Of a stretch of 20,461 nt of DNA, positions 3,878 through 20,369 are shown piece by piece; within the stretch, counting starts at the first letter, position 1, and every line of letters begins with the position of its first letter. A program made the translations under genes and the position numbers. A model generated the notes under the pieces. The model made no database searches, was not told the origin of the DNA, and saw only the letters and a program-made list of their open reading frames with translations. Source of the stretch: an uncultured archaeon (GTDB lineage: Archaea > Asgardarchaeota > Lokiarchaeia > Sigyniarchaeales > Promethearchaeaceae); assembly GCA_964426185.1 (NCBI GenBank), contig CAYRPF010000052.1:3302-23762 (forward strand), read 5' to 3'.

Positions 3878-3946
3878 AATTTAACCACATTTAATGGTAT
3901 ATAGGCAAGTTTTAAGAAAAAATGGAATTTTTTCATATTTTTTATT

Positions 3947-4304: not shown

Positions 4305-6392
4305 TCAATTTCTTGATTGCTTCATCCATACTTGCATAATCGATGGGCCACGATTTGACCATGAATAGTAGGGAATTAAGCGTATTTTACGATTTTTTTT
4401 ATCAAATGTTAAAAGAGAAGGAATACCACCCATTAATTCGAGGTTATGTTCATAATTTATTTTCGGATTTGCTGGTAGATAAATTGATTCAAATTCCATA
4501 AAAGGATTATCGAGAGATTCACTACAGAAAATAAAAGGTCCACGTTGGAATGCAATACGGCCAATATTTGCTTTCACTTTAGGATGTGACTTTAAAATTT
4601 TCACAGGAAGGGAAAGTTGAAGTGAAATTTCACAATTCTTATCCCATAATCGGGTTATAGGAAACCAGTGACTACGATGCAATTTAATCCCTGATGCAAT
4701 ATATTCCCCTAAAAATGAATTTTTTTCAGGTTGAAAAGGAAAATTATTGATTTTATCCGCTTCTATCTTCTTTCCATTCATCGAAACAGAAAATTCATGG
4801 CTCCAATGGGGGATTCTTAACATTAATGTGAATTTAGTAGGATGAGGAAGTTGAAGTTGTATTCGGATCTTTCCTTTATCTAATAAATCTGCTTCAACTT
4901 TGATTTTAATTAGCAAAGTCTCAGATATTTGAATATTATCACGAGATTTTTCCGCAGAATTCATGGGAAGAAAGATTTCGGCAGAATTTCCGATATACTG
5001 GGTTAAAAAAAGTTTATTGGGTGCAATTGTATAACAAAATTTACCTAATTGCGCCAATATTCGAGATATGTTAGAAGGACAGCAAGGTGTTTTATACCAA
5101 GATCTCCGGCTATAATTTCCTTTACTTTCCAAGATATTTCGATATAAATAACTTTTTCCATTAATTCCCATACCTACCAACATCGCATTGTAGAGTTGTA
5201 ACTCCAAAACATCAAGCATTTCTACCCGTTGGGTAATCTTGAATAATTCCCAAGTCCAGAGAATATTTGCCACAGCAGCACAAGTTTCACAATAAGCGGA
5301 ATCATTGGGAAGTTCAAATGGGCGACCAAATCCCTCAATCAGAGGAAGAGCCCCCAATCCTCCGGTGACGTACATGAATTGAGATATCATTTTATCCCAA
5401 CACTGCTCAATCGTCGATAAAGAAGGAAGATCTTGCTTCAAATTTAGATAATTGGTTACAGCGGTTTGAAAATATCCAAAACGCACAGCATGACCCTCGG
5501 GACGGATCCGTTTACCAAAAGGTTTATTTTCTTGAAAGTATTTCCCAGAAAAGAATTGATAAAGTGCCCGGAAGAAATATTTTCGGCGCTCATTTTTCTC
5601 CATCGTTTCTAGAAAACCAAATTCTTCTTGAGATTCGCAATCTTCTACATTATGGTTTAAAGAAAGGTCTTTCTGGTATTTCATTCTATTTTCAGTTACA
5701 ATTTTTTCTCTTTTGCTTTGATCGAAATTTTGCTGCAATAATTTGATTCCATAGAGCTTTGTGGTTCCTCTTCGCAAAATAAATCGTTCAGCCATTTGCA
5801 AATATTTTGAATTTTGGGTAAATTTATATAATTTTAGCAGAGCCCATTCAATTTCTGGATGTCCCGGTGTTCCAGGAAAATTTTGACCTAAAAACTCATT
5901 AACAATCAAATCAGCAGCTTTTCGTGCACATGAAAAAAGTTTTGAGTCTTTATCGATAATATAATGGGCAATACCTGCTTCAATCAAATGCCCCATGCAG
6001 TATAATTCATGTTCAATGGAAAGATTCGCCCACATTCTACCAGGAAAATGAAATTGATTATAAGTAAAGATATATCCATTTTCTTGTTGGGATTTTACAA
6101 TGATGTCAATCAATTCATTCAATTTTTCTTCTAATCCCTGATTTGATGGATTCTTTGATAAAATCCATGCTGCTGCTTCAGCCCATTTGTAAACATCTGA
6201 ATCAGTATAAAAATAACCTTTTCTGAATCCTTCTTTTAACTTTGCCACTAATCGAAAGTTATCGATGCTTCCAACTTTTTCCAACATCTCCCATTGATGG
6301 AAAATTGCCACATTTTGGTTGGTATCTATCCATTTGCTCCAAAAAGGGTCTGATATCTTAATGTTTTGGAGTTTGCATTCAATGAGGACCAT
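4305..6392 (-). CDS. Glycoside hydrolase family 127 (DUF1680; beta-L-arabinofuranosidase-like Zn/Cys glycosidase)
   Basis: 'DSDVYKWAEA', 'HELYCMGHLIEA', 'GHPEIE', 'GHAVR', 'MYVTGGLG...EGF', 'YCETCA', 'PCCPSN' (Glu/Cys3 Zn site) and C-terminal 'IPYYSWSNRG'. Confidence 0.95.
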   Translation of the reverse strand: MVLIECKLQNIKISDPFWSKWIDTNQNVAIFHQWEMLEKVGSIDNFRLVAKLKEGFRKGYFYTDSDVYKWAEAAAWILSKNPSNQGLEEKLNELIDIIVKSQQENGYIFTYNQFHFPGRMWANLSIEHELYCMGHLIEAGIAHYIIDKDSKLFSCARKAADLIVNEFLGQNFPGTPGHPEIEWALLKLYKFTQNSKYLQMAERFILRRGTTKLYGIKLLQQNFDQSKREKIVTENRMKYQKDLSLNHNVEDCESQEEFGFLETMEKNERRKYFFRALYQFFSGKYFQENKPFGKRIRPEGHAVRFGYFQTAVTNYLNLKQDLPSLSTIEQCWDKMISQFMYVTGGLGALPLIEGFGRPFELPNDSAYCETCAAVANILWTWELFKITQRVEMLDVLELQLYNAMLVGMGINGKSYLYRNILESKGNYSRRSWYKTPCCPSNISRILAQLGKFCYTIAPNKLFLTQYIGNSAEIFLPMNSAEKSRDNIQISETLLIKIKVEADLLDKGKIRIQLQLPHPTKFTLMLRIPHWSHEFSVSMNGKKIEADKINNFPFQPEKNSFLGEYIASGIKLHRSHWFPITRLWDKNCEISLQLSLPVKILKSHPKVKANIGRIAFQRGPFIFCSESLDNPFMEFESIYLPANPKINYEHNLELMGGIPSLLTFDKKNRKIRLIPYYSWSNRGPSIMQVWMKQSRN

Positions 6393-6909
6393 TTATAAAA
6401 CCCGATAAAATTGTTGCTGGTATTAAAATAATCAAACTAGTAAGCAATTCACTCAGAGTTGTAAAAATATTCCCTCCAGCTAAATTAACACCCGCAAACA
6501 TTGCCACTAAAAAATATAGAATTATAAGCCCTACATACACTAATAAAGCCGTAATCAAGCTGTGTTTGATTCCTTTGACAAAAATTCCAATAATTAATCC
6601 CACACTAAACCATGTTAATATAGTAGGCCATAAAGTTTGCCCAAAAAGAATTCCGAAAAATCCCACACTCTGTAAATTACTTATTGAAAAAAGAGAAAAT
6701 AAATTAGAAGAAAATCCCGATCCTACTAAAAGATATAAACCAGTTACAAAATCGATAAAAGTTCCTGCAGTGAAATGTGGAAATATATCTCGATCTAAGC
6801 GAACACCTCTATATACAAAATTACTAAAAATAAAGACACCAAAAATACTTAATCCCAAACTCCATATTATTGCAATGATATAACGAACTTTGAGGTTGTA
6901 AATTGGCAT
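6379..6909 (-). CDS. Hypothetical polytopic membrane protein (about 4-5 TM helices); stop overlaps the GH127 start
   Basis: Long hydrophobic segments, GGGAGA SD-like site upstream, and a 14-nt overlap with the GH127 ORF. Confidence 0.8.
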   Translation of the reverse strand: MPIYNLKVRYIIAIIWSLGLSIFGVFIFSNFVYRGVRLDRDIFPHFTAGTFIDFVTGLYLLVGSGFSSNLFSLFSISNLQSVGFFGILFGQTLWPTILTWFSVGLIIGIFVKGIKHSLITALLVYVGLIILYFLVAMFAGVNLAGGNIFTTLSELLTSLIILIPATILSGFINGPH

Positions 6910-6948
6910 TAGAATATTCTCCCGTATGTAGAAATATAAATTTATGCA

Positions 6949-6966
6949 GTTATATAACCTTTGATT
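6949..6966. promoter_or_regulatory. Palindromic TATA box (GTTATATAAC) with a minus-strand BRE-like element; possibly a bidirectional promoter
   Basis: 6949-6958 is a perfect palindrome. The minus strand reads AATCAAAGG-TTATATAA, resembling the srp19 promoter. It lies between the divergent membrane-protein gene and rps2. Confidence 0.55.
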
Positions 6967-7012
6967 TTATTGCGGGAAGAAAAAAATTCATAATAAATGA
7001 AATATTATTTTC

Positions 7013-7098
7013 CTCAAATCGTTCAGCGAGATGGTGATTATTTTCATCATTGGAAAAAAAGTTTCTGAACGTTCGCGAGTTCCATGCATATATCATGG
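7013..7098 (+). promoter_or_regulatory. Candidate structured 5' leader of rps2
   Basis: Nested stems CGTTCAG(7020-7026)/CTGAACG(7065-7071) and ATGGTGA(7031-7037)/TCATCAT(7044-7050), followed by hairpin CCATG(7082-7086)/CATGG(7094-7098). Confidence 0.4.
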
Positions 7099-7125
7099 TA
7101 CAATGACACGAAATAGGTGTATCTT

Positions 7126-7848
7126 ATGGTCGATAAAAAGAAAAAAGACTCCGCTAATGAAGGCGAAGATGATATTGAAGAAGTTGTTCTTGATGATGAC
7201 ACGGTAATCTTTCAAGAAGAAAAAGAAGAAGATCTTTTAATTCCTCGAAATGATTATTTAAGCTCAGGAGTACATATTGGAACTAAATTGAAAACGGTTC
7301 ATAGTGAAAAATGGATTTACCGAACGACTTCTTATGGATTGTATGTAATTGATTTGCATGCGACAGATGAAAGAGTGCGCATTGCTGCAAAATTCTTGGC
7401 ATCCTTTGATCCAGAAAAAATTATGGTTTGTTCCGTCCGTCGATATGGTAGGGCCCCCGTTCGCGCCTTTTGTAAAGTAACTGGGGCACGTGCTTTAGCC
7501 GACCGATTTATTCCAGGGACCTTAACAAATCCTTTAATTGATCAATTTAAAGAAGCAGATGTTTTATTAATGATTGATCCTCATGCAGATAAACAAGCTT
7601 TAGCCGAAGCTCGCTTAGCTAGAATACCTGTAATTTCATTCATCGATACGGATGATTATCTTTACGATATTGATTTAGCGATACCAAGTAACAACCGTGG
7701 TCGAAAAAGTTTATCAAAAATGTTATGGTTATTAGCCCGGCAGATTATGCGTGAACGAGGTAAGATTGCTAAAGACGAAGATATTGAGATCACTCCTGAA
7801 GAATTCGAATCTAAAATAACTCGTATTCCTTCAACTTCTGAAGATTAA
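7126..7848 (+). CDS. rps2: 30S ribosomal protein S2 (uS2, archaeal type) with acidic N-terminal extension
   Basis: 'LLIP..DYLSSGVHIGT', 'GLYVID', 'DERVRIAAKFL', 'RFIPGTLTNP', 'DPHADKQA' and 'DLAIPSNNRGRKSL..LWLLARQI'. ATG 7126 follows an AGGTG SD site; the ORF track starts at GTG 7117. Confidence 0.97.
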   Translation: MVDKKKKDSANEGEDDIEEVVLDDDTVIFQEEKEEDLLIPRNDYLSSGVHIGTKLKTVHSEKWIYRTTSYGLYVIDLHATDERVRIAAKFLASFDPEKIMVCSVRRYGRAPVRAFCKVTGARALADRFIPGTLTNPLIDQFKEADVLLMIDPHADKQALAEARLARIPVISFIDTDDYLYDIDLAIPSNNRGRKSLSKMLWLLARQIMRERGKIAKDEDIEITPEEFESKITRIPSTSED

Positions 7849-7897: not shown

Positions 7898-9301
7898 TTA
7901 TGCAGATCTTTTAAGTACTTCAAGAATATGGTTTTTTTTCTGCTGCGCATCTGAAAATGCCTTTTCTAATTGTTGAATGTGCTTTGTGGGTACTTGTTCT
8001 ATTTGATCAATCACTTTTTTAATTCCTGTATATGCTGCTTCACGAAAATGGGGTGAAATTATTTCTTCATTATCTCCATCTATAAAATGAACACTGTTTT
8101 TTGGAATTACCTGTCCTATTTCAAGAGCCTTAATCCCATTTTGATGGAGTAAATCCAAGATTTTTTCTTTAACCTCTGGTTGACAAAATATCACAAGACT
8201 ATCAAGTGAAACACCCAAATAATCAACAGAAGTTTCTTTCAATAAAGCTAACACGCGTGGATTAACCATTTGGCGAACTTTTTCAATATTCACCATAAAT
8301 CCGTGAGAAATTACCGATTGAATTTCCAGAAGGTCATTTCTTAGCCCTCCATTTGTAACATCAATCATTGTATGAATTTGTGAACATATTTTAGGCTGGG
8401 ATAAAATAGTATTTACTGCTTTAAAGAAGTTGATGTTAAGTGTTTCCGCCACCACATCAGACCGCCCATGATAGAGTGCGGTAGTGCTGATGGTACCTCC
8501 TCCCGATCCGTAGGTCATGATCATGCTGTCTCCTGGTTGAATATTTTCTCGAAAAAACGAATATCGGAGAATACCTACCCCTGCAATACCTCCAGTTAAT
8601 CGATCACCAATGACCATATCACCACCAATTCGTAGTGTTGAGCCCGCAGTTATGGGAACTTGAGCCAGTTCGGCAACTGTAGCAATTCCTGCTTCAAAAT
8701 CAAACAATTTTCCAATATCTCCATCATCCGCTAAATGAATATCAACCATGATCGAAATAGGACGAGCACCTTTAATGAGAATATCGCGCAACATCGCACG
8801 TGTGACATGGAAACCAGCCAAAAAAGGGAATTCACTCAAACGACTATGCATCCCTTCCATTTTTGAGACAATAACCAGAGAATTGGAATTTTTCTCCTCT
8901 GAATTGAGAGTTATTTCAACTGCTCCTGCATCATCTAATGTTAAAGGAGATAAGAGTGCTTTTGTAGAAGTTTGAGAAATTTTAGATATCATTTCATGAA
9001 CAATATTATCTCCAATTCCACGACATCCCACTCCTCCTTCACCCATCTTAAGATTTGCTTTAATTGGAGTTATGACGGTATTGACTAAATCGTGTTTTTT
9101 TTTCTCAATTTTTGATGAAGAACCCCTTAGAATTTTCTCTGATACTTCAACTTCTTTTAAAATGGCTTCAGCATATTGCTGCAGTATATTTCGGGGCGCA
9201 TTTTTAAAAATCTGATATTCATCAATTAATTTCTGAATAATTTCTTCACGAGTTTTTTTTTGGCGTAGTAATTGGCGGGCAATACCTTCTAAATTGGTCA
9301 T
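7898..9301 (-). CDS. AIR synthase-related protein (PurM/ThiL/SelD/HypE superfamily; archaeal MJ0640-like family)
   Basis: 'NLEGIAR', 'MGEGGVGCRGIGD', 'DDAG', 'EGMHSRLSEFPFLAGFHVTRA.LRD', 'DIHLADDGD', 'GSTLRIGGDMVIGDR', 'GSGGGTISTTALYHG', 'DVTNGGLR.D' and 'DYLGVSLDSL'. ATG 9301 fits the family N-terminus better than the ORF-track start at 9379. Confidence 0.88.
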   Translation of the reverse strand: MTNLEGIARQLLRQKKTREEIIQKLIDEYQIFKNAPRNILQQYAEAILKEVEVSEKILRGSSSKIEKKKHDLVNTVITPIKANLKMGEGGVGCRGIGDNIVHEMISKISQTSTKALLSPLTLDDAGAVEITLNSEEKNSNSLVIVSKMEGMHSRLSEFPFLAGFHVTRAMLRDILIKGARPISIMVDIHLADDGDIGKLFDFEAGIATVAELAQVPITAGSTLRIGGDMVIGDRLTGGIAGVGILRYSFFRENIQPGDSMIMTYGSGGGTISTTALYHGRSDVVAETLNINFFKAVNTILSQPKICSQIHTMIDVTNGGLRNDLLEIQSVISHGFMVNIEKVRQMVNPRVLALLKETSVDYLGVSLDSLVIFCQPEVKEKILDLLHQNGIKALEIGQVIPKNSVHFIDGDNEEIISPHFREAAYTGIKKVIDQIEQVPTKHIQQLEKAFSDAQQKKNHILEVLKRSA

Positions 9302-9392
9302 TTCTGAATTCTCGGCATTTATTTTATATGTATGATTATTCAAAAAAAGAAAAAGAAATTTATCAAGCTTTTCATTCATAATTTTAACTATA

Positions 9393-10469
9393 ATGCATTT
9401 TTTAATTCGTGCCCCAGCTCGTATTCACATGACTCTGATTGATCTCAACGGAAGTGTAGAAAGAATTGATGGAGGGTTGGGTTTTGGAATTCAAGAGCCA
9501 TTTTTCAAAGTGGAGTTTTGGGATGATATTCCAAACAATAATCATCTTTCTAAAGATCTCAAATCGCCCTTAAATAAAAAATATGCGATAAAAATTGGTG
9601 AAAAAAGGGTAAATTTTTACGGAAATCAAAATGAAAAAGAAATTTTTGAAGATATTATCCATCGGATGAGATCAAAATACAATTTATTACCTAAAGAATT
9701 TTCAGTCCATATTCATAAAAGAATTCCCCCTCATCAAGGTTTCGGTTCAAAAACTCAGTTATTGTTGACATTTGCCAAAGGAATTGCAGAATTATATGGA
9801 ATAACACCTTCTGTTTATGAACTTACCAGAATTGTTGGACGAGGTGGAACTTCTGGAATTGGATATCAAGTTTTTGAACAAGGAGGATTTCATTTTGATT
9901 TGGGGCATAGTTTTGGAAAAATGAAGGAAAAACAATCATTTTTACCTTCTTCAGCAAGTTCCGCAAGACCAGGATTACCCTTCTTTCATTGTGATTTACC
10001 TTCAAATTGGAAAATTTTCATTATGCATCCTCAGATTTCCCAAAAAATTGCAGATCAAAAGGAGATTTCTATTTTTTCTGATTTTACACCCATTGCTCAA
10101 CGGGATATAGAGATTATATCACACAGAATTCTGTTTCAAATAATTCCCGGTTTATTACAGCAAGATCTGAAGGTCTTGGCAGATGGTATGCATACAATAA
10201 ATAATCATGGCTTCAAGAAAATTGAAATCTCGTTACAACCTTCATTCGTGCCCGATTTATTAAATAAAATCTATGAAGAATTCCATATTCCTGCCGGACT
10301 CTCTTCTTTTGGTCCAATTTTATATGTAATTGTGGATAATTCGATGAGAATTCAAGATTTCACAAATTTTATCCATAAATTTAATCAAAACGATTCTTCA
10401 ATACCTAAAATAAACTTATTTGAGACATTTCCAAACAATCAAGGAGCTTTAATATCTCACATTCCATAG
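9393..10469 (+). CDS. mptG: Beta-ribofuranosylaminobenzene 5'-phosphate (beta-RFA-P) synthase, GHMP-kinase fold
   Basis: 'PARIHMTLIDLNGSVERIDGGLG', 'PPHQGFGSKTQL', 'GRGGTSGIG..VFEQGGF..DLGH', 'FLPSSAS', 'GFKKIE' and 'GLSSFGP'. Confidence 0.93.
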   Translation: MHFLIRAPARIHMTLIDLNGSVERIDGGLGFGIQEPFFKVEFWDDIPNNNHLSKDLKSPLNKKYAIKIGEKRVNFYGNQNEKEIFEDIIHRMRSKYNLLPKEFSVHIHKRIPPHQGFGSKTQLLLTFAKGIAELYGITPSVYELTRIVGRGGTSGIGYQVFEQGGFHFDLGHSFGKMKEKQSFLPSSASSARPGLPFFHCDLPSNWKIFIMHPQISQKIADQKEISIFSDFTPIAQRDIEIISHRILFQIIPGLLQQDLKVLADGMHTINNHGFKKIEISLQPSFVPDLLNKIYEEFHIPAGLSSFGPILYVIVDNSMRIQDFTNFIHKFNQNDSSIPKINLFETFPNNQGALISHIP

Positions 10470-10477
10470 TAGTACCT

Positions 10478-10882
10478 ATGGAAAAGTTAGCACGTGATTA
10501 TCATTCACCGGATGTTTCCGATCGTGAAATTGCAATTTTTGAACTCGGAATAAAATTAGCCGCCTTATTCCACATTATTTTCGGAGCACCTGTAGCCAAT
10601 GTTGGAGATGTAAAAAAAAGAATTGCAGAAGGAATTGAAGCTTCGATTAAATGTCAGCCCTTTGTAAAGGATGTAAAGGTAGAAATCGCCGAACTGCATG
10701 ATGGAATGAGCCATAATTACACAAAATCAAATGAATATGATTATTCTTATGTCTCAGGAAAGAATCTAAGAGCTCAAGTGGAAATAAACTATAACGGTTG
10801 GCAAGCAATCGGATGTGTGGAATGGAAATCGGATTTGAATTACCCAATGATGTATATTAAAAGTGTTAATCCACTTGAGTGA
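10478..10882 (+). CDS. mptD: Archaeal dihydroneopterin aldolase (MptD, MJ0408/DUF372 family)
   Basis: 'SDREIAIFELGIKLAALFH..GAPV', 'IEASIKCQPFV', 'YSYVSG' and 'LNYPMMYI'. Starts 8 nt after mptG. Confidence 0.9.
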   Translation: MEKLARDYHSPDVSDREIAIFELGIKLAALFHIIFGAPVANVGDVKKRIAEGIEASIKCQPFVKDVKVEIAELHDGMSHNYTKSNEYDYSYVSGKNLRAQVEINYNGWQAIGCVEWKSDLNYPMMYIKSVNPLE

Positions 10883-10930
10883 TTGCAATAATTCTTCAAA
10901 TTCAAATAAGTGAGAACCCTTTTCTTCATT

Positions 10931-11998
10931 ATGAATTCATCAATTCCGGATCAAAGTAACTTCGATCATTTTCGATTTCTGCGAGTTAAGGGCTCAAATT
11001 ACCAAATCGGTTTTCAAACAGGGAAGAAATTCCGAAATCAAATTAAGAATGTCGTTGAAAACAGCCTTAGAATTCAAAATCTGCTGAAATTTGACAGAAA
11101 ACATCCTGAAAAAGCATTAACTTCTGAACAACTCATTCAAGCCAATTTTCCACAATATTTAGAGGAAATTCGTGGTATTGCTGAGGGCTCTACGATCGAT
11201 TATCATACGATCCTTCTCATCAATCTTTTTCATCTTTATGAGCATGAAGATTGTTCAACGGTTATTTTCAAATCCGATTCAGAAATTCTTATCGCCCATA
11301 ATGAAGATCACAATCAGATAATGTGTGAAAATTCCTATTATTTAGAGATACATCTTCCAAATGATGTAGTTATCTTCACACATACTTACCCTGGCTCTAT
11401 TCCTGGTTATTCTCATGGAATGAACTCGCATGGCATTGTTATTACCTGTAATTATGTGCCAGATCCGATTGAAGATATTGGAATTCCAAGGACTATTTTA
11501 GGGCGGTGGATGTTAGAATCTAATTCTATTGAACAAGCAATTGAAAGATCTCATGGTTTTACCCCGCGTTCAGGTGGTGTAAGTTATAATATTGGAAGTG
11601 TAAATGAGCAACGTGTGGTAAATGTGGAGATTACTGGTCGAGATTGGGCGTTAACTGAGATTGAAGACAAATTTTTTCATCCAAATCATTATATTTCACC
11701 GAAATTTTCCCAAATTCCAGTACCAGATTCAAAATATTCGACAACAAAGAAAAGATTGAAGCGTAGTAAAGAGCTTCTTCCTATCATTGAAAAATCCAGC
11801 CAAGGAGCATTGAAAATTCTTTGGGATCCTGATATTTTTATTCTTCCACATGCAATTCCCAAAAAAGGAATACATTTCACCTTTAATACTTCAGTTTTCC
11901 ATCTCAAAAATCATCAAATATTCACTGAAATTTATTCCAATCAGCGAAATTCCGAAATTTGTGATAAATATAAAATGGTGGAATTAAAAAAAGGATAA
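10931..11998 (+). CDS. Peptidase C45 / acyl-CoA:6-APA acyltransferase-like Ntn-hydrolase
   Basis: 'GSNYQIGFQTG', 'YLEEIRGIAEG', autoprocessing site 'ED/CST', 'AHNED', 'GMNSHGIVIT.N' and 'HPNHY'. ATG 10931 is preferred; the ORF track starts at GTG 10910. Confidence 0.88.
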   Translation: MNSSIPDQSNFDHFRFLRVKGSNYQIGFQTGKKFRNQIKNVVENSLRIQNLLKFDRKHPEKALTSEQLIQANFPQYLEEIRGIAEGSTIDYHTILLINLFHLYEHEDCSTVIFKSDSEILIAHNEDHNQIMCENSYYLEIHLPNDVVIFTHTYPGSIPGYSHGMNSHGIVITCNYVPDPIEDIGIPRTILGRWMLESNSIEQAIERSHGFTPRSGGVSYNIGSVNEQRVVNVEITGRDWALTEIEDKFFHPNHYISPKFSQIPVPDSKYSTTKKRLKRSKELLPIIEKSSQGALKILWDPDIFILPHAIPKKGIHFTFNTSVFHLKNHQIFTEIYSNQRNSEICDKYKMVELKKG

Positions 11999-12697
11999 TT
12001 CTTGAGGTTCTACCCCGTTTTCAATCAAATAATTATCTATTACTTCATAAGCAGCATGAAATCGATCCATATCCCGCCAACTGATGATCTTCTTTTTTAT
12101 TATATTATATGTTCGTATTGCATCATTGTAAAAATCAGAATATCTCTCATAGAGTGGTATTCGGGTGGCTAAAATCAAAGCTTCTAATGAGAGGTTAAAA
12201 GAACGATTGTTGAATACTTGAGGTAAACGATAGATATTCTTGGAGAGAACTTTTGCTCTGATATTGGGGACTTCACGCCGTTTACATACTGGTCGATCAA
12301 TAAGCGAAGAAGGCAAATCTAATACTTCACATTCCAAGATCACCCAAGCGCTTTTTAATATAGGAATAGATTCCGTAATAATAAAAGCCGAACGTGGTAA
12401 TTCATCAATAAAATTCATATGATCCTTACGCCGTAATGCCGCCATAACATATTCAAAAAAATCCTCAGAAAAATTGATGGAAAATCGAACACCTTTACTA
12501 AGTAAATCTCGAGTATGAGTATTTGCATATGCATGGATATAAACTTCATCAGTTGGAGTAAAATGAACGCCCATACACGCAGCATTTATTTTTAGATTAG
12601 AATCGGGAAAATATGTACATAATATAGATTCATAATTTATGAAAGGTTGAAATTTCAGCAGATCTCCCGAAATTATTGGTTTAGTCGATGCATTCAT
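11984..12697 (-). CDS. DUF447 family protein (FMN-binding split barrel; Orf22-like, linked to H4MPT biosynthesis)
   Basis: 'YESILCT', 'NAACMGV' (family NAAPMG), 'THTRDLL', 'PILKSAW..LEC' and 'NRSFNLSLEALILATR', plus pterin-cluster context. Confidence 0.8.
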   Translation of the reverse strand: MNASTKPIISGDLLKFQPFINYESILCTYFPDSNLKINAACMGVHFTPTDEVYIHAYANTHTRDLLSKGVRFSINFSEDFFEYVMAALRRKDHMNFIDELPRSAFIITESIPILKSAWVILECEVLDLPSSLIDRPVCKRREVPNIRAKVLSKNIYRLPQVFNNRSFNLSLEALILATRIPLYERYSDFYNDAIRTYNIIKKKIISWRDMDRFHAAYEVIDNYLIENGVEPQELSFF

Positions 12698-12720
12698 ATA
12701 TAATTTATTTAACTAAATCG

Positions 12721-12734
12721 TTAAAAGCTTTTCA
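12721..12734 (-). promoter_or_regulatory. Putative BRE + TATA for a leaderless DUF447 transcript (contains palindrome AAAAGCTTTT)
   Basis: Minus strand reads TGAAAAGC-TTTTAA, about 24 nt upstream of ATG 12697. Confidence 0.5.
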
Positions 12735-12766
12735 GAAAATTAAATAAGTGTTGAGGGTTATGGAAA

Positions 12767-13900
12767 ATGAAAGCAATGCGAGTGGTTGGAATTGATCCTG
12801 GTTCTGTTTCATGGGATTTTTACGGTTATGAAAAAAAAAGAAATGCACGAATTTCATTTTTGGATGGTTCAATTCCATCGGAAAAAGTAAAGAAAAATCC
12901 AATTGAGATTATCAAAATTCTTAAACAGAATCTGCCAATTGATGCAATTGCTGCCCCCAGCGGTTTTGGCCTACCCTTACGGGAATTTTCTCGAAATAAT
13001 CCATTAACCCCTAAAGAACTAGAATTAATAACTCTAAGAAAAACGGATGAAACTGAAATCATGGGTCTTCGAAAAGTAGTTAATTTGATTTCTGATTTAC
13101 CGGCTCGTCTGTTTATTCTCCCTAGTGTAAAGCATTTTCAAACTATACCTCGACATCGAAAGATCAATATAATTGATATGGGCACTGCAGATAAAGTTTG
13201 TAATGTGTTTTTAGGCATTCAGCAGCAATTGGCAAAAGAAAAAATCAGTTCGCTTTCTTCGGTTAATTTTATCTTGTGTGAAGTAGGACGGGGATTTTCT
13301 GCAGTGATTGCAGTTGAAAAAGGGCAAATTATAGATGGAATTGGAGGCACAAATATTCTGGGATATAATTCTATAGGAAAAATGGATGGTGAATTAGTTT
13401 ATTTAAGTAAAAGCCATCTGACGAGTAAAAGCTCTATCTATCAAGGAGGTATTAAAGACATTTTACCAAATATTCAACATAACATATCACAGAGCCCAAA
13501 TACTTCTGAAAATTGGTCAGATATTATCTCTGGACATTTGGATGATTCATTGCTCGGAAAATTACTAATTGAACAAATTTTAAAAGCATTTCTACAATTA
13601 ATGGGATCTTTTACCTCTATTTCCTTTCCAATTCCCGTTTTATTAACAGGTTCTGGGATTTCTTTACAAAAATTGAAAAAACAACTCGAAAAACATGGAG
13701 ATAAATTTCCCTCACCTCTATTTCAAGTTGAAATCCTACATCCTAGTGCTTCAGTAGCAAAAACTGCTGCACAAGGCGCGGCGTTTATAGCGGAAGGAAT
13801 ATTAGGAGGAGAATTTAATAAGACTTTAGAACATATGGGGCTTTTTTCCACGAATGGAACCGTCTTAGATGATCTCTTTTTCCCACACACTCAAATTTAA
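12767..13900 (+). CDS. DUF1464 family protein (ASKHA/acetate-butyrate-kinase-like fold)
   Basis: 'VVGIDPGS.SWD', 'APSGFGLP', 'LPSVKHFQTIP.HRKIN.IDMGTADK', 'EVGRGF..VIAVEKGQIIDGIGGT', 'MDGELVY' and 'AKTAAQGAAFIAEGILGG'. GAGGG SD site upstream. Confidence 0.87.
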   Translation: MKAMRVVGIDPGSVSWDFYGYEKKRNARISFLDGSIPSEKVKKNPIEIIKILKQNLPIDAIAAPSGFGLPLREFSRNNPLTPKELELITLRKTDETEIMGLRKVVNLISDLPARLFILPSVKHFQTIPRHRKINIIDMGTADKVCNVFLGIQQQLAKEKISSLSSVNFILCEVGRGFSAVIAVEKGQIIDGIGGTNILGYNSIGKMDGELVYLSKSHLTSKSSIYQGGIKDILPNIQHNISQSPNTSENWSDIISGHLDDSLLGKLLIEQILKAFLQLMGSFTSISFPIPVLLTGSGISLQKLKKQLEKHGDKFPSPLFQVEILHPSASVAKTAAQGAAFIAEGILGGEFNKTLEHMGLFSTNGTVLDDLFFPHTQI

Positions 13901-13933
13901 TTTGTAAAGATTAAAATTTGTAAAGATTAAAAT
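13899..13933. repeat. Perfect 16-bp tandem duplication (AATTTGTAAAGATTAA x2 plus AAT)
   Basis: 13899-13914 is identical to 13915-13930, followed by AAT. Confidence 0.9.
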
Positions 13934-13939
13934 ACCAAT

Positions 13940-14518
13940 ATGAGTCGCATAAAATTTGCATGGGGAATTACGGGTTCTGGCCATCTTTTAAAAGAAAGTC
14001 TTGAGTGTTTTGAAAAAATGGTTGAAAATGGACGAAGAGTAGATCTTTTTATTTCTTCGCCAGCTGAAACCGTGTTAAAAATGTATAATTTATATAATCG
14101 ATTAAAAGAATTTATAAAAAATAATCAAGATCAAATCAAGCATATTTATCGAGAAGACGAACAACCACCTGCTTTTCCAATCTGTGCAAAATTTAACCTA
14201 CACACTTATGATTTATTAATTTTAAGTCCTCTTACAGCTAATTCGGTGGCAAAAATGAATGTAGGCATAGCAGATTCGTTAATTACCAATATTTTTTCAC
14301 AAATGATCAAAGGAAATGGACAGATATACGTGGTTCCTTGTGATCTTATTCCTGGAATCATCAAAACTACAGCCCCAAATGGTGAAATCGTGGAGATTAG
14401 AATAGATAATTTTAACAGTCAAAACGCCCGCTGTCTCCGTAAATTTCCTACAGTATCTGTCTTTGATCACCCGTCTAAACTCTGCGAAGCCGCCAAAAAT
14501 CTTTATCCTCTTGATTAG
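13940..14518 (+). CDS. Dihydromethanopterin reductase-like flavoprotein (DmrX/DmrB/AfpA family) lacking the ferredoxin insert
   Basis: 'FAWGITGSGHLLKES', 'ETVLKMY.L' and 'YDLLILSPLTANSVAK..GIADSLITN.FSQ..KG...VVPCD'. 192 aa with no CxxCxxCxxxC motif. Confidence 0.85.
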   Translation: MSRIKFAWGITGSGHLLKESLECFEKMVENGRRVDLFISSPAETVLKMYNLYNRLKEFIKNNQDQIKHIYREDEQPPAFPICAKFNLHTYDLLILSPLTANSVAKMNVGIADSLITNIFSQMIKGNGQIYVVPCDLIPGIIKTTAPNGEIVEIRIDNFNSQNARCLRKFPTVSVFDHPSKLCEAAKNLYPLD

Positions 14519-14553
14519 ATATTTCTTATAGATATTTCTTGATGATATTATTT

Positions 14554-16284
14554 ATGACAAATTCAAAAAACTTTGTTAGAATTCTTTTAGTTACGGGACA
14601 AGAGGCTGCCCTCCAGTTAAATCCTTTACACAACAAAATTATTGCAAATAAATACCACCTTTTTGTTCATCAATGCCCCGTTCCCATTATTTCACTTAGT
14701 TCTCCCACTGAAATCCTTCAATCTCTGCAAGAAACTTATTCAACTTCACAACTCACACAATTTTCATTTATTATGCTATCAGGGTTAATTCCATGGAATG
14801 TTACAAATCTTCAATCACATTTTGAAGCAAAGGTAGTGAAAGGTCCGCCTTTTAGCTCTCAAATTGTGCCTACGCTTGAAAATCTTTCCAAGGGCGATCT
14901 ATACTCATTGAAGTTTGACTTTACAAATCCAGAATCTGTTGGAAAGGAGAAATTAAATAAGATGACGCAAAGCACACTTATAAATCTTAGAAAGGAGCAA
15001 AATGAGCCTTATTTCACCTTATCAAATGCTTTTTCTGAAATAGTTTTCAGCCCTCAACTTCCTGCCGTGTTAGTTGGAGAAGTAGTTGATTTTCCTAATA
15101 TCTCAGAAAATGCACTTTTTGCAAAGATTGATTCACTCTTAGCCCACGGCGCGCAAATAATAGATTTAGGTTGCATTCCTCATGAAAATCACAGTGAATA
15201 TATCCAGAAGATTTTACCAAGATTAAGAAAAAGATATTCAATTCCATTTTCTATTGATAGCCACAATCCATCAGAAATTATTACTGCGGTAGAAAATGGT
15301 ATTTCTTTAATTTTGAGTATTACGCCGTTAATAATCGACCGATTGAATGATTTTGAATTAATCAAAGATATCCCAATTGTATGTATTTCATACACTGAAG
15401 AAGAAATTCGGAAAGCAATTTCTTTTGAAATCCCATCAAAATATGCTGAAATTTCATCAAAAATACTACAAAATTCGAGGTTATCTCAGGTACGCGCTTT
15501 AATCCATTTCTTTTTCTATCTAAAAGGGTTAGGTTTTAAAAAAATCTTGCTGGATCCTTTAATGCAAGCACCAATCACCCCAGGTTTTGTTCGTTCTCTT
15601 CAAAGATATATCGAATTAAAACAACAACTTGATACACTCCGAAAATTGGAAATAAAAAAAAATTTATGGGATCCAGAGCAATTTCCGCAACTTTTTGCTG
15701 GGATAAGTAATGTAACAGAATTAATCGATGCTGATAGCCCCGGTATTTCTGCATTATTGGCGGGAATTATAACCGAAATAGGTATTTCCGGAGTTTTACT
15801 TACAGAACATTCTGGAAAATGTTTTAAAGTTATTCATGAATTTAAACGTGGCCGCGATTTAATGTTTTTGGCAAAAACTCGGCAAATACCTCCTCTCAAC
15901 CTTGGATTGGATGCTTTTGAATTCAAGTCTAAGCGAAATTATCACCCAATCCCAAAGAACTTGCTTAAAGATAAAGTTCCCATACAAGTGGATTCAGAAA
16001 TTTCAGAAACGCATTTAGATCCCTTGGGTTTTTTCCGAATTTATATCGATACTCAACAAAATCAAATTATTGTGGTCCATTCTCCCTATTCAGTGCTCAA
16101 TACAGAATCTATGGAAGGAAAGGAATTTGAAACGGTCTTTATAGGAACTTCGGCAGAAAATCTCGCCAAGCGTATAATTGAAGAAAAATTTATCAGTCGA
16201 TTGGATCATGCGGCATATCTGGGAAGGGAATTGTTTCGGGCAGAGCGTGCACTTTTTACAGGTTCTGATTATCACCAAGAATGA
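14554..16284 (+). CDS. Dihydropteroate synthase-like protein (MJ0107/Orf20 family) with C-terminal DUF4346 domain
   Basis: 'RILLVTG', 'GEVVD', 'GAQIIDLG', 'PFSIDS', 'ILLDP', 'AGISNVTELIDADSPG', 'TEHSGK', 'DPLGFFRI' and 'ISRLDHAAYLGRELFRAE'. Start is uncertain (14539, 14542 or 14554). Confidence 0.9.
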   Translation: MTNSKNFVRILLVTGQEAALQLNPLHNKIIANKYHLFVHQCPVPIISLSSPTEILQSLQETYSTSQLTQFSFIMLSGLIPWNVTNLQSHFEAKVVKGPPFSSQIVPTLENLSKGDLYSLKFDFTNPESVGKEKLNKMTQSTLINLRKEQNEPYFTLSNAFSEIVFSPQLPAVLVGEVVDFPNISENALFAKIDSLLAHGAQIIDLGCIPHENHSEYIQKILPRLRKRYSIPFSIDSHNPSEIITAVENGISLILSITPLIIDRLNDFELIKDIPIVCISYTEEEIRKAISFEIPSKYAEISSKILQNSRLSQVRALIHFFFYLKGLGFKKILLDPLMQAPITPGFVRSLQRYIELKQQLDTLRKLEIKKNLWDPEQFPQLFAGISNVTELIDADSPGISALLAGIITEIGISGVLLTEHSGKCFKVIHEFKRGRDLMFLAKTRQIPPLNLGLDAFEFKSKRNYHPIPKNLLKDKVPIQVDSEISETHLDPLGFFRIYIDTQQNQIIVVHSPYSVLNTESMEGKEFETVFIGTSAENLAKRIIEEKFISRLDHAAYLGRELFRAERALFTGSDYHQE

Positions 16285-16364
16285 TTCTCTCAACATAACA
16301 GATTGTATACTAGATACTACCTAAAAATTAAAATTTTGATACGGAATATTTATACCGATCACAA

Positions 16365-17123
16365 ATGAAAACTCAAACCCTCAAAATTTCATCCACCAAT
16401 CAAAATTCACTTAATGCCACTCTTTATCTTGCTTCAGACACTGAATTTTCTTCCAATCTTATAATACTATGCCATGGATTCACAGGAGATCAATATGAAT
16501 GGAAGCGCTTCCCTAAAGCAGCAGAAAAATTTGTGGAAGAAGGATTTACCGCCCTAACTTTTGATTTTTCAGGTTCGGGAAAAAACCGCCGTATCCCAAT
16601 AACCATTAAACAACAGGTGGAAGATTTAGAATCTGTTTTCAAATGGGCGCAAAATCAAGGATATCAGAAAATTTCCGTGATAGGATTGAGCTTTGGAGGT
16701 TTAACAGCCTTACTCGCCAAAATACCGGAACGAAAAACCACGGTCTTTTGGGCTCCCGCCTTTTTCATGCGAAGAATAATTGGTCCAAAAATAATTCTCA
16801 TGCGAATTATTGCTCTATTTCGGAAAAAACCAATCCAATTGCGTAAAAAACTGTTGCTTGATAAAACTTTTCTTGATACGATATATGGAATCGACATAAA
16901 TAAAACCCTTCAGAATTTTACGGAATCTTGCTTAATCATTCAAGGTGATAGAGATAGAGATGCTAAGCTGAAATATACGCAGAAAGCTTATGAATTAATG
17001 CCAAATAAGGAGATTAAAAAATTAGTTATAGTTCCTGGTGCAGATCATAATTTCAAAGGAGAGCATTTAGAGCAATTTATAGAACATTCAATCAAATGGA
17101 TAAAGGATCTTCATAATACATGA
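16365..17123 (+). CDS. Alpha/beta-fold serine hydrolase
   Basis: 'LCHGFTG', 'FDFSGSG', nucleophile elbow 'GLSFGG', 'IIQGDRD' and 'GADHNF' give a Ser-Asp-His triad. Confidence 0.92.
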   Translation: MKTQTLKISSTNQNSLNATLYLASDTEFSSNLIILCHGFTGDQYEWKRFPKAAEKFVEEGFTALTFDFSGSGKNRRIPITIKQQVEDLESVFKWAQNQGYQKISVIGLSFGGLTALLAKIPERKTTVFWAPAFFMRRIIGPKIILMRIIALFRKKPIQLRKKLLLDKTFLDTIYGIDINKTLQNFTESCLIIQGDRDRDAKLKYTQKAYELMPNKEIKKLVIVPGADHNFKGEHLEQFIEHSIKWIKDLHNT

Positions 17124-17132
17124 TTAATTCTT

Positions 17133-17681
17133 TTAACTCTTGATTAAACTTAAAAATTCTGTGCGGGTTTTTGGATCCTTCCGAAATACGCCATTCATGG
17201 ATGATGTGGTCATGATCGAATTTTGTTTTTCAACACCACGCATCATCATGCACAGATGTTGTGCTTCAATTACCACGGCAACACCCATTGCACCCGTATA
17301 TTCTAATATAGCATCAGCAATTTGCTTGGTCAATCGCTCTTGAATTTGCAGGCGGCGAGCAAAAACATCTACGATTCGAGCCATTTTGGATAAGCCAATG
17401 ATTTTGCCATTTGGAATATAGCCTAAATGACATTTACCGATAAAAGGTAACATGTGGTGTTCGCACATTGAATAAACTTCAATATTTTTGACGATAATCA
17501 TCTCGTCTGACTCGCTTTCAAATAGAGCCCCATTAATTACTTCTTTAATATTTTGGGTATAACCACGTGTGAGAAATTTCATAGCAGTGGCAGTTCTTTT
17601 TGGGGTTTTCAAGAGACCTTCTCTATCGGGATCTTCTCCCAGTTCAATGAGCATTTGACGAATAAGATTTTCCATGGGCAT
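17133..17681 (-). CDS. folE: GTP cyclohydrolase I, type IA (bacterial/eukaryotic FolE)
   Basis: '[16 protein letters not shown]', '[11 protein letters not shown]', '[22 protein letters not shown]' and 'HLCMMMRGV'. Start is probably ATG 17681 or 17675; the ORF track starts at 17714. Confidence 0.96.
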
Positions 17682-17761
17682 TATGTTCTTTAATGGGTGC
17701 TTCCAAATAAACATAGGGAAAAAGATTCCCTCTTTTTTCCCCCATGAGAGGAGCAGTGAGA

Positions 17762-19003
17762 ATGAGAATCTTTCTGGAAGGTGATTTCATTGAGCTTTAT
17801 GATGGTAGTTTCTTTGAAGTAAAAGGATTTCAGCATCCAAACGGACAAGTGGTGGCACTTCCCAGATATCTGTCGCTTGATCGAATTCGAGAATTAACCA
17901 TCCAACAGCAGAAAGAGTGGTTATTCTCAAGTCCACGAAGAAAAAAAAAGCACACAGATGGTCAAGAAACGGTTTACTATAAAATCAAGGGATTAAAAGA
18001 GAAATTTGAGATTTTACCCATTTTATTTCCTGAAATTCAACTTAAACATCCCGAACGTGATTTCTTTCTACCTACAGTCCCTTATGGAATGATTAAAGAA
18101 CATTACAGACCCGAAAACAAGATAAAGAGTCTATTTTCTTATTACATGTCGGAATCGAACGACCAACTAACACCCGATTCGACAAACGGAAATAATTCCA
18201 GCTTGCTTCAAGATGGCCGAGACTTTATTCAAGTTCTCTGTGATTTAACCGGATTATCTTTGGACAGTTTCGGAATTACCGGATCATGCTTAGTGGGTTT
18301 AGAAAATCAGAATTCAGATTTGGATCTTATTATTTATGGGTTTTCAGCAGGTCAAAAAGTTCGGAAAGCATTATTCGATATAATCTCACAATCGATCAAA
18401 AAATTTGCCGGTCACCATAATTCCAAGATTTCAGAAAAAATCAAAAAGGATTCTCTAGAAATTCGTCCTTTTACCACTAATGAACTACGTTCTCTATATA
18501 ATTACCGAGTTCCTACAAAACACTATCAATTTAATCGATTTCTTCAAATGGAACAACGTAAACTCCATCAAGGTTTTTTCCGAGAGCGTGAATTTTTCTT
18601 TCGCTTTTTAGAACATAGCGATAGAAAACATTATCTGAGAAGCAACAATTACTATACATTTTCCATCCGAACACTCGGTCGAATTGTTATTTACGCTCAA
18701 GTGATTGGAGATGAATTTTGGTGGATAACACCTTCTCGAGTAAAATTAGGTCATGTACAAGTTGTTTCACCACCAACACTTACCACTAAAAGTCAAGAAT
18801 TGCTTGCTCATTATGGATTAAATATTTCTGAAATTCAGCAGACCTTCACATTGCGCGGAAGATTCACAGAAAATGTTCGCTTGCTCGAATGGGTAGAAAT
18901 CCATGGTATGTTAGAATTAGTTGAAGTATTTTCAGAAAAACCTCACACTTATTTGCAGATTTCACTGGGAAATAATCCGAAAGATCTATTACTCCCTCGA
19001 TAA
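17762..19003 (+). CDS. Archaeal predicted nucleotidyltransferase (Pol-beta/MNT superfamily, COG1665-like)
   Basis: 'EGDFIE...FEVKGFQHP', 'PRY', catalytic motif '[11 protein letters not shown]....SDLDLIIYG' and 'RGRFTE'. ATG 17762 follows a GAGGAG SD site; the ORF track starts at 17744. Confidence 0.82.
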
Positions 19004-19007
19004 TTCA

Positions 19008-20369
19008 TTAAAGTTCTAATTCTCCGAACTTTCCGCCACCACCGGGTGTAATTGCAATATTATTATCCCGAAAAGCTTGAATCACTTCAGCTACCTTTCT
19101 ATATTTTTCTGCCATCTGGGTAAGATCTTTATCAACCAAAATAAAGCATTCTTTTCCGTTATCTTTCAGTAAGTTCTGATAAGCAATTTGCACTCTTTTA
19201 GATCTCAAAGATTTAATCCCCAATATTTTAGCCAATAGTTCAATTAATGGAATGATATGTAAATATGGGGGGCGATGAACTGGATGATGTGCTCTTTCCC
19301 AAGTGCCTAATTCATTAATCCGCTCACTAACACCCAATTGAAGTGTGGGAACTTTTGCATTCTGTTTTTTCGGATCACGGTTCAATTGGATATTTTTTCT
19401 GCAAGCAGGGCACTCCACCCGCTTTTTTGCCACCAATTGCAAAAATTTCTGTTCTTTTTGGGTTGTAGGGAATTCGTAATAGAGAAAATCATCATCCCAT
19501 TTCTTGACAGGAAATCCAAAAAGATTTTTTACCGAATTTTGCATGTGAGAACTATCTTTTACAATAGAGCGAATTGTTCGCCGACGACATTTCGTACAAA
19601 ACATCTTATAATATTTCCCCAACCTTGGATCTAATCCCACATTTAAAATTATTTTTCTACCTTCCTTTCGTAAAAGTGCTTTTTTAATTTCCTCAAAATT
19701 CAGCGCTTCAATTTGAAACCGGTTAAATTCTCTTCCCACTGAATCCACTCCTTCAGAATGTGCATCACTATTGCTGATAAATGTGATATTTTGAAGTTCT
19801 TCCATGCGATCGGCTAAATATGTATCAGCAGACAACCCTAATTCTAAAAACGCGAGTTTTTTCACTGATGTCCCGTAAGCAGATCGCAAAGAGCCAAATT
19901 TGCCCTGTCGAAAAATAGATTTAAAAGGAGTAAAAGCATGGGCAGGCCCGATTAAACCATTGACTTCCTCGACAATTTCAACCAATTCTCCAGGACTCCG
20001 ATGGACGTGCGGACGACCTGCCCATCTTCCTGTAATATTTTTTACATAGGGAGAAATTCTTTCCACAAGAGCATCAACCGCTGAAAAATCGGGTAGAAGA
20101 ACTAATTGATGGATAGATTCCGCATCTTCTAGTTCAGTTTGGAGAATAAAGGCAGTATCTTTGAAATATAGAGAATTTTCTCTTTTTTCTAAATTTTTTC
20201 GCATGTAACTAAGCCAATTAGGTTGGGTGATATCTCCTGTGCCTAATACATCAATTCCTTTCATGGATGCAGTGTTATTTAATGTATCTAAAGAAATTTT
20301 TTGCGACACGGCTATTGAATAAGGTGAATGAAGATGAAGATCAGCGTTGTAGGTGGGCAAATTATTCAT
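19008..20369 (-). CDS. endoQ: Endonuclease Q family protein (TIGR00375-type PHP domain plus Zn ribbon)
   Basis: 'ADLHLHSPYS', 'GTGD', 'PAHAFTP', 'ELGLSAD', 'SNSDAHS', 'GREFN', 'GLDPRLGKY', CxxC...CPxC, 'GVSERI.EL', 'RPPYLHIIPL' and 'PGGGGKFG'. Confidence 0.9.
   Translation of the reverse strand: MNNLPTYNADLHLHSPYSIAVSQKISLDTLNNTASMKGIDVLGTGDITQPNWLSYMRKNLEKRENSLYFKDTAFILQTELEDAESIHQLVLLPDFSAVDALVERISPYVKNITGRWAGRPHVHRSPGELVEIVEEVNGLIGPAHAFTPFKSIFRQGKFGSLRSAYGTSVKKLAFLELGLSADTYLADRMEELQNITFISNSDAHSEGVDSVGREFNRFQIEALNFEEIKKALLRKEGRKIILNVGLDPRLGKYYKMFCTKCRRRTIRSIVKDSSHMQNSVKNLFGFPVKKWDDDFLYYEFPTTQKEQKFLQLVAKKRVECPACRKNIQLNRDPKKQNAKVPTLQLGVSERINELGTWERAHHPVHRPPYLHIIPLIELLAKILGIKSLRSKRVQIAYQNLLKDNGKECFILVDKDLTQMAEKYRKVAEVIQAFRDNNIAITPGGGGKFGELEL

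Follow-up and report, generated by a model that had tools for sequence, protein, structure and literature searches.

Cofactors of the tetrahydromethanopterin (H4MPT) family are made in methanogens by joining a pterin pyrophosphate to an arylamine, ribofuranosylaminobenzene phosphate (RFAP), and in Methanocaldococcus jannaschii the genes concerned include MptA, MptB, MptD, MptE, MptG, the MJ0301 dihydropteroate synthase (DHPS), DmrX and MJ0107. The H4MPT islands of Methylorubrum extorquens (mptG, orf19, orf20, dmrA) bring together MptG, DUF447 and DHPS-like genes beside a dihydromethanopterin reductase, along with ATP-grasp, CitG-like and kinase open reading frames (ORFs). RFAP-derived pterins reportedly also serve biosynthetic one-carbon (C1) transfer without methanogenesis, as in the Sulfolobus sulfopterin and the Thermococcus and Pyrococcus derivatives described by R. 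H. White. Here we analyse a 20,461-nucleotide stretch of DNA from an uncultured Lokiarchaeon (the window; contig CAYRPF010000052.1 of assembly GCA_964426185.1), in which positions 7898 to 19003 carry archaeal Mpt genes, a bacterial-type FolE and several further enzymes. We consider it likely that this is the main Lokiarchaeal cluster for a methanopterin-family, RFAP-containing pterin C1 carrier, in the form found in Promethearchaeum, Lokiarchaeum and Harpocratesius.

The window lies on contig C52 of a 3.26-Mb assembly (92% complete), and its host is a Lokiarchaeon of the genus of Candidatus Harpocratesius. The closest relative, Candidatus Harpocratesius repetitus FW102 (a 4,361,485-bp contig), was found by searches with MptG and with the AIR-synthase-like (AIRS-like) protein described below and is placed in the window's genus; Promethearchaeum syntrophicum MK-D1 (4,324,194 bp) and Candidatus Lokiarchaeum ossiferum (6,035,313 bp) are next closest. 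Gene families were assigned by Pfam and NCBIfam scans, and starts were corrected from conserved alignments and deposited gene calls.

Among the 18 ORFs of at least 130 amino acids (aa) in the window, MptG (9393-10469, plus strand) scores 241 bits against TIGR00144, above the 113.5 cut-off, and has 62 residues invariant across nine Lokiarchaeal orthologues. It is followed by the archaeal dihydroneopterin aldolase MptD (10478-10882, plus; PF04038, 90 bits), DUF447 (11984-12697, minus; PF04289, 36 bits, and PF20766), DUF1464 (12767-13900, plus; PF07318, 258 bits), an AfpA/DmrB-like flavoprotein of 192 aa (13940-14518, plus; TIGR02700, 138 bits, and AfpA, 117 bits), a DHPS-like gene of the MJ0107/TIGR00284 type (14539-16284, plus; Pterin_bind PF00809 and DUF4346 PF14251) and the GTP cyclohydrolase IA FolE (17133-17681, minus, in an ORF of 17133-17714; PF01227, 256 bits, and TIGR00063, 260 bits). 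The AIRS-like gene (7898-9301, minus, in an ORF of 7898-9379; AIRS and AIRS_C domains, conserved start M27) diverges from mptG with 91 bp between them, and a 413-aa nucleotidyltransferase-OB protein (17762-19003, plus, in an ORF of 17744-19003) lies beyond FolE. Co-oriented genes of the cluster are separated by 8-80 bp; of the convergent pairs, two lie end to end (9 and 4 bp apart) and a third overlaps by 15 bp. An earlier, sequence-only reading had named mptG, mptD, DUF447, DUF1464, a Dmr-like gene, an MJ0107-type gene and folE; all are present where it placed them, and the 8.3-kb span with alternating strands that it described from mptG to folE matches the coordinates found. Its mention of an Orf22-type gene needs correction, as Pfam and NCBIfam scans revealed none in the window.

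Compared with methanogens, the Lokiarchaeal system has in common MptG, MptD, an MptE-like protein, the MJ0107-type protein, DUF447 and a Dmr-type reductase. It differs in having FolE for MptA, a reductase without a ferredoxin domain, and a host genome without Mch and Ftr. Additionally, DUF1464 was not found in methanogen control genomes, nor was the AIRS-like subfamily at orthologue-level scores, and the Lokiarchaeal genes are clustered, whereas MptG stood alone in the sole methanogen locus returned by our searches, as it did in the sole 'Nitrososphaerales' locus. Relative to the methylotroph islands, which likewise group MptG, DUF447 and DHPS-like genes near a reductase, the window has AIRS-like, DUF1464 and nucleotidyltransferase genes in place of the ATP-grasp, CitG-like and kinase ORFs; its reductase is DmrB-like rather than the DHFR-like DmrA, and Pfam and NCBIfam scans of the window found no fae, mtd, mch or fhc.

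The flavoprotein aligns with TIGR02700 over the first 142 positions, and its closest solved structure is DmrB (AfpA) of Burkholderia xenovorans (3wis/4mwg, 61 bits). It shares the single-domain architecture of DmrB without iron-sulfur motifs, although it is archaeal and only distantly similar; the CxxCxxC motif and the ferredoxin domain of the DmrX form are both absent. On these grounds it is a probable dihydropterin-to-tetrahydropterin reductase of the DmrB/AfpA type.

The arrangement of these genes is widely conserved. We compared 20 regions around DUF1464 from relatives within the same order, and fetched 80 loci with an MptG profile, of which 78 were Asgard; the denominators that follow are loci with enough flanking sequence. 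A single order supplies most of the loci, so the counts are not independent of one another. MptD directly follows MptG in 71 of 73 Asgard loci, DUF447 lies downstream of MptG/mptD in 69 of 71, and the AIRS-like gene is upstream of MptG on the opposite strand in 55 of 60, less than 400 bp away in 33 of them. Within 10 kb of MptG are found DUF1464 (51/63) and the DHPS-like gene (44/55), which are paired in all four families of the order. A core of AIRS-like, mptG-mptD, DUF447 and DUF1464-DHPS-like recurs in the 78 Asgard loci. The same cluster is present in P. syntrophicum MK-D1 and Ca. L. ossiferum, and in Harpocratesius, Promethearchaeum and Lokiarchaeum the order is uS2, AIRS-like (minus), MptG-MptD (plus), DUF447 (minus), DUF1464-flavoprotein-DHPS-like-alpha/beta hydrolase (plus), then FolE and the 413-aa gene.

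More distantly, two contigs from JGI data (L129 and L130) encode proteins 24-44% identical to those of the window, and on them these families are packed into one tight operon whose genes overlap: AIRS-like (minus), then DUF447-MptG-DUF1464-DmrX-DHPS-like-MptA and two nucleotidyltransferases (plus), beside CdhD. MptG was found in 83 genomes of a single, evenly drawn set of 201 from Asgard archaea, DUF1464 in 78 and the AIRS-like gene in 57. The arrangement of the cluster genes is more than chance. The sequence-only reading had proposed four orphan enzymes in or beside the cluster as candidates for missing steps; of these, just two were found to be conserved with mpt genes in relatives, the AIRS-like gene and the 413-aa nucleotidyltransferase, while the alpha/beta hydrolase is confined to one subclade and a C45-family gene to two Harpocratesius genomes.

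The AIRS-like protein has the strongest claim, with DUF1464, to be a new member of the pathway. It matches PF00586 (29 bits) and PF02769 (38 bits) above their cut-offs, but against the equivalogs for ThiL, HypE, SelD, PurM and PurL, with cut-offs of 125-650, it reaches just 21-49 bits; among solved structures, a family profile finds weak matches only (HypE, 55 bits; ThiL, 36 bits). Of 1.84 billion representative proteins, an exhaustive HMMER search placed only 43 clusters at E<1e-30. Those of full length show 38% identity or more, and below them scores fall to those of generic AIRS proteins, about 40 bits. By these scores, the family is a small and distinct subfamily of the PurM superfamily. 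In the 201 Asgard genomes it occurs exclusively in families with MptG, and a few families have MptG without it. Support for it as a pathway candidate is strong.

Where the AIRS-like protein might act is suggested by its neighbours and by methanogen biochemistry. The MptG product in a methanogen can be the phenol beta-ribofuranosylhydroxybenzene phosphate (beta-RFH-P), which is phosphorylated, aminated with aspartate to the succinylamino intermediate beta-RFSA-P and cleaved by PurB to the aniline beta-RFA-P; that account names no enzyme for the ATP-dependent conversion of phosphorylated beta-RFH-P to beta-RFSA-P (PMC3261824, citing White 2011). The AIRS-like gene faces mptG in the window. In PurM-superfamily enzymes such as PurL, PurM and HypE, ATP is used to activate the oxygen of a carbonyl or amide group, allowing its replacement by nitrogen. 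Given this chemistry and the position of the gene, the AIRS-like protein is a natural candidate for the ATP step that turns the phenol into the aniline. We think it probable that it has some ATP-dependent role in the pathway; that this role is the phenol-to-aniline step we consider possible, though less likely than not.

Distant AIRS-like genes (37-41% identity) adjoin an MptE-like gene on two contigs, a NUDIX gene on two contigs, or an MptG-like gene, and two of them are co-operonic with MptE. Because of these links to MptE and NUDIX genes, a role on the pterin branch, such as ThiL-like phosphorylation, is also possible. The AIRS-like gene of two genera (g11 and g17) is divided at one and the same point into two adjacent ORFs of about 167-188 aa and 310 aa (G017, contig C234, 1847-3216; also G033, G156 and G171), which looks like a conserved division between an N-terminal region and a PurM-like core, not a sequencing error. 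A 703-aa protein joining AIRS and HhH-GPD domains (P0127) was considered as an informative fusion and set aside, as its AIRS_C part looks truncated and joined to the gene next door.

DUF1464, which we take to be an ASKHA kinase-fold protein, is the other candidate with strong support. Its matches in the 201 Asgard genomes fall only in families having MptG, its distribution across families is nearly that of MptG, and it abuts MptG in several non-Lokiarchaeal families. Among the 14 control genomes PF07318 matches only Sulfolobus acidocaldarius, which also matches MptG, DUF447, TIGR00284 and the MptE-like family; it has no match in the two methanogens or in Haloferax. Thus, DUF1464 is a marker of non-methanogen producers of RFAP-pterins and not of the classical pathway. 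The control genomes lend no support to equating DUF1464 with the 'Orf21/22' of methanogens or methylotrophs. The idea that DUF1464 and the AIRS-like protein together replace MptE in two steps was weakened, given an MptE-like orthologue in 37 of 41 relatives and the two distant AIRS-like genes co-operonic with MptE.

The DHPS-like protein, which is paired with DUF1464, scores 181 bits against TIGR00284 (cut-off 257) in an end-to-end alignment, with the Pterin_bind plus DUF4346 architecture seen in Orf20/TIGR00284; it is predicted to bind a pterin. It is probably not a dihydropteroate-type condensing enzyme, because a canonical DHPS is encoded elsewhere in the genome and conserved in 38 of 41 relatives. 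The DUF447 family was found in all four archaeal control genomes and is related to FMN-binding split-barrel proteins, which makes it a candidate reductase acting on an RFAP-pterin intermediate. Sequence searches against solved structures gave only a marginal match for DUF447 (MTH_863) and none for DUF1464 or the DHPS-like protein. In the papers searched, no description of DUF1464, MJ0107 or the AIRS-like family in such a role was found.

The cluster is hybrid at its GTP cyclohydrolase step. FolE is 67-73% identical to FolE of Gammaproteobacteria (Cycloclasticus, Immundisolibacteraceae and others), a level similar to that seen against other Lokiarchaeal FolE. MptA (PF02649) has no match in the host genome or in three closed genomes of relatives. 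Across 41 genomes belonging to the order, the two enzymes have almost complementary distributions, and both genes lie at or near the cluster. Lineages lacking Mch and Ftr (the host, Promethearchaeum and Lokiarchaeum) have FolE where MptA would be, while relatives bearing Mch mostly keep MptA near the cluster. The identity of about 70% to gammaproteobacterial FolE, together with the position held by MptA in relatives, supports a bacterial origin of the gene and displacement of MptA in place, and bears out the proposal of the sequence-only reading that the cluster is a hybrid. The swap is a clear example of an archaeal cofactor pathway in which a bacterial gene has taken the place of an archaeal one.

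Two further genes have a narrow distribution. An alpha/beta hydrolase (16365-17123, plus), with matches to several alpha/beta-hydrolase Pfam families, weak MenH and lactonase matches and a GLSFG nucleophile elbow, is found after the DHPS-like gene in the Mch-less, FolE-bearing subclade alone (five genomes), and support for it as a pathway member is weak. A C45 Ntn acyltransferase/hydrolase of an autoproteolytic family (10931-11998, plus, in an ORF from 10910; NF040521, 166 bits, and PF03417) occurs at the cluster only in the window and in Ca. H. repetitus, and is absent from the third genome of the genus and from all other loci. We regard it as an insert restricted to the genus and probably without a part in the pathway.

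The 413-aa protein next to FolE has no Pfam or NCBIfam match, but carries an invariant G-x-T-G-S ... S-D-x-D motif (8-10 orthologues), and in a protein atlas it falls with archaeal clusters, some of which bear PF01909. AlphaFold (AF2) models of the family (pLDDT 83.5 and 81.9) begin with a beta domain and end with an OB fold (Z up to 8.1); for the central domain, the best neighbours in a VIA search are all Pol-beta-type nucleotidyltransferases at modest scores (Z 5-6.6). Foldseek found no match at E<=0.001 for the 419-aa model against the PDB, with OB-fold rows only, and no usable match for residues 1-310. From the motif and the predicted structure we identify the protein as a Pol-beta-superfamily nucleotidyltransferase with an OB fold, COG1665-like. 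A TiaS-like identity was considered and is unsupported by any family match.

This gene neighbours GTP cyclohydrolase genes of both types. It lies beside MptA in eight numbered genomes of our set (with a 4-bp overlap in G004) and in many genomes of other Asgard families, and beside FolE in nine (G000, G001, G006-G008, G010-G012 and G017). It is next to a GTP cyclohydrolase in at least six families, and inside the tight mpt operon of L129 and L130. Support for its membership of the pathway is moderate.

A second, distant nucleotidyltransferase-OB paralogue of 416 aa (about 59 bits) lies on another contig of the host genome (C41; L110, 1191-2441, minus), beside a DHH/DHHA1-like protein, and a comparable second copy is present in other genomes of the same family (f1). 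On a further JGI contig (L118), two nucleotidyltransferase-OB genes in tandem stand immediately after the gene for an ECF-transporter S component, and both a CofE-like ligase and a PfkB kinase are encoded close by, a further vitamin- or cofactor-type setting for the family.

It is very unlikely, in our judgement, that only mptG, mptD, dmr and folE belong together and that the orphans are inherited neighbours with unrelated jobs, the nucleotidyltransferase-OB protein, for example, acting on nucleic acids with Endonuclease Q. Most of the loci come from one order, which favours such a view, and the C45 and alpha/beta hydrolase genes are lineage-limited. The OB fold of the nucleotidyltransferase resembles proteins that bind single-stranded DNA or RNA, and the 453-aa gene just beyond the cluster (19008-20369, minus) encodes Endonuclease Q: it scores 277 bits against TIGR00375, below the 327 cut-off, matches PfuEndoQ at E of about 1e-82, and solved EndoQ structures (5zb8, 7k30) at about 1e-81 to 1e-82. 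That gene is of PHP type, and its identity ruled it out as a neopterin-triphosphate phosphatase. Its linkage may point to a nucleic-acid role for the nucleotidyltransferase-OB gene. However, AIRS-like, DUF447, DUF1464, DHPS-like and nucleotidyltransferase genes are clustered tightly again on the contigs whose proteins are only 24-44% identical, distant AIRS-like genes adjoin MptE-like, NUDIX and MptG genes, and AIRS-like and DUF1464 track MptG in the phyletic profile.

The pathway also draws on genes outside the window. An MptE-like gene, a putative pyrophosphokinase, is on contig C2 (PF01973, 52-54 bits; the orthologues in relatives are those counted above). The canonical DHPS (447 aa) on contig C54 scores 172 bits against TIGR01496 (cut-off 162.6); its residues 300-447 form a C-terminal extension without a Pfam match, seen in family f1 only. 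This DHPS is paired with a CofE-like ligase (both within L105, 196-2346, minus), and the two are adjacent in all nine Lokiarchaeal loci examined, including genomes bearing Mch. As MptE and DHPS are encoded elsewhere, the cluster is not the whole pathway. The compact C1-carrier pterin pathway proposed by the sequence-only reading therefore survives as a conserved gene set on the MptG (RFAP) branch, and falls short in completeness.

The CofE-like ligase reaches 134 bits against TIGR04132 (cut-off 350) and scores just under the cut-offs of the CofE equivalogs. Neither CofD nor a match to FolC (TIGR01499) was found in the host genome, and for this reason the ligase probably glutamylates a pterin cofactor and not F420. 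Its position beside DHPS suggests a role like that of FolC2 (CT611) of Chlamydia, a CofE-family folate glutamate ligase; the likeness lies in the pairing with DHPS in a genome without FolC and CofD, and the difference in the low TIGR04132 score.

Several observations weigh against an RFAP-containing carrier as the product, or against the candidate genes as its makers. MptG scores 264 bits against the stricter equivalog NF040726, under its 328 cut-off, and a homologue is also present in the control genome of Haloferax, a folate user (PMC8305020). The nucleotidyltransferase family is found in 128 of the 201 Asgard genomes, more widely than MptG or MptA and including families without MptG; in several Asgard families MptA is found on another contig, and in two Lokiarchaeal families (L111-L114) Endonuclease Q lies next to the nucleotidyltransferase gene. 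The AIRS-like family, at orthologue-level scores, is confined to a narrow archaeal set, although the phenol-to-aniline reaction is described in a methanogen. The DHPS and CofE-like pair in a genome without CofD and FolC points to a glutamylated, pteroate-like product. Mch and Ftr (PF02289, PF01913) are unmatched in the host genome and missing from the subclade's closed genomes, all of which do encode FolD, and the P. syntrophicum ThyX works with bacterial folates (PMC9931769); with Mch and Ftr missing, FolD present and ThyX using folate, there is no known RFAP-specific consumer of the cofactor.

The last of these points would fit a lineage that, lacking Mch and Ftr, uses a true folate-like pteroyl-glutamate, made by FolE, MptD, MptE and DHPS from 4-aminobenzoate, with glutamate added by the CofE-like ligase, the MptG-linked genes being relics or serving a minor second pterin. 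A DHPS above the TIGR01496 cut-off beside the ligase in nine of nine loci, the lack of CofD and FolC, the presence of FolD without Mch or Ftr and the folate-using ThyX (PMC9931769) all speak for it. Mch was not found in five genera of the order (g1, g4, g5, g6 and g7, with closed genomes in three of them), and is present in every genome searched of families f2, f3 and f4. Yet the MptG-linked genes of the Mch-less subclade are intact, 44-70% identical and in kept order in three closed genomes, which is unexpected of relics. Moreover, the DHPS and CofE-like pair is equally conserved in Mch-bearing relatives that need an H4MPT-type cofactor, and is therefore no mark of a folate-only lifestyle. 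We regard this folate route as unlikely, and prefer the RFAP-containing carrier. MptG of the Mch-less subclade does score lower against TIGR00144, about 240 bits over model positions 2-294, against 300-367 bits in Mch-bearing relatives, which could reflect a changed substrate or faster evolution.

A pterin with no part in C1 transfer, used in redox chemistry or signalling or as a precursor shared with 7-deazaguanine synthesis, seems most improbable. GTP cyclohydrolase I feeds other pathways, and one distant AIRS-like gene has QueC-like and radical-SAM genes in its vicinity. But MptG, MptD and a Dmr-type reductase are jointly diagnostic of the H4MPT and modified-folate family, and the core of the cluster co-occurs with Mch in relatives and adjoins CdhD on L129.

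Under the RFAP-pterin reading, FolE would convert GTP to dihydroneopterin triphosphate, MptD would convert dihydroneopterin to 6-hydroxymethyl-dihydropterin, and MptG would condense phosphoribosyl pyrophosphate with 4-amino- or 4-hydroxybenzoate to a ribofuranosyl-benzene phosphate, these assignments being made at the level of family. The MptE-like pyrophosphokinase, and the canonical DHPS beside the CofE-like ligase, would be supplied from elsewhere in the genome. The nucleotidyltransferase-OB protein may act on or with the cyclohydrolase product, and the AIRS-like protein may perform an ATP-dependent oxygen activation on the MptG branch, our preferred guess being phosphorylation and amination that lead from beta-RFH-P to beta-RFA-P, or alternatively a ThiL-like phosphorylation at the MptE step. 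DUF447, as a flavin-type protein, and the DUF1464 and DHPS-like pair would modify the side chain of the RFAP-pterin, and the DmrB-like flavoprotein, again by family, would reduce the dihydro to the tetrahydro form. In evolutionary terms, FolE would have displaced MptA in place, with the alpha/beta hydrolase arriving in the same subclade and C45 as a late insert.

The window also holds genes outside the cluster. At 1126-7848, SRP19, a GH127 beta-L-arabinofuranosidase-like gene, a 176-aa orphan and uS2 form a block that keeps its synteny with the cluster in Harpocratesius, Promethearchaeum and Lokiarchaeum. A monomeric NADP-isocitrate dehydrogenase is encoded at 1643-3877 (minus; PF03971, 1258 bits, and TIGR00178 above cut-off); this type is known mostly from bacteria, and the gene may have been acquired.

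We conclude that the cluster is a real, conserved variant of a known system, whose value lies in its candidate enzymes and in the question of the C1 carrier. A more speculative proposal, which we hold doubtful, is that Lokiarchaeia in which the H4MPT-dependent Wood-Ljungdahl enzymes have been lost still make a chemically distinct, RFAP-derived and possibly glutamylated pterin for use by bacterial-type folate enzymes, with the AIRS-like protein filling the phenol-to-aniline step, DUF1464 and the MJ0107-type protein the side chain, and the nucleotidyltransferase the handling of the cyclohydrolase product. It has been reported that folate and H4MPT biosynthesis in P. syntrophicum 'appear incomplete', and cross-feeding of folate from partners has been proposed (Filée et al. 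2023, PMC9931769). In contrast to this published view, P. syntrophicum carries the cluster (L027) together with MptE and DHPS, and these genes combined look like an almost complete pathway for making a pterin cofactor. The one-carbon carrier of Asgard archaea, among prokaryotes the closest known relatives of eukaryotes, is unsettled; the AIRS-like, DUF1464 and nucleotidyltransferase proteins are concrete, clonable candidates for steps to which the literature consulted assigns no enzyme.

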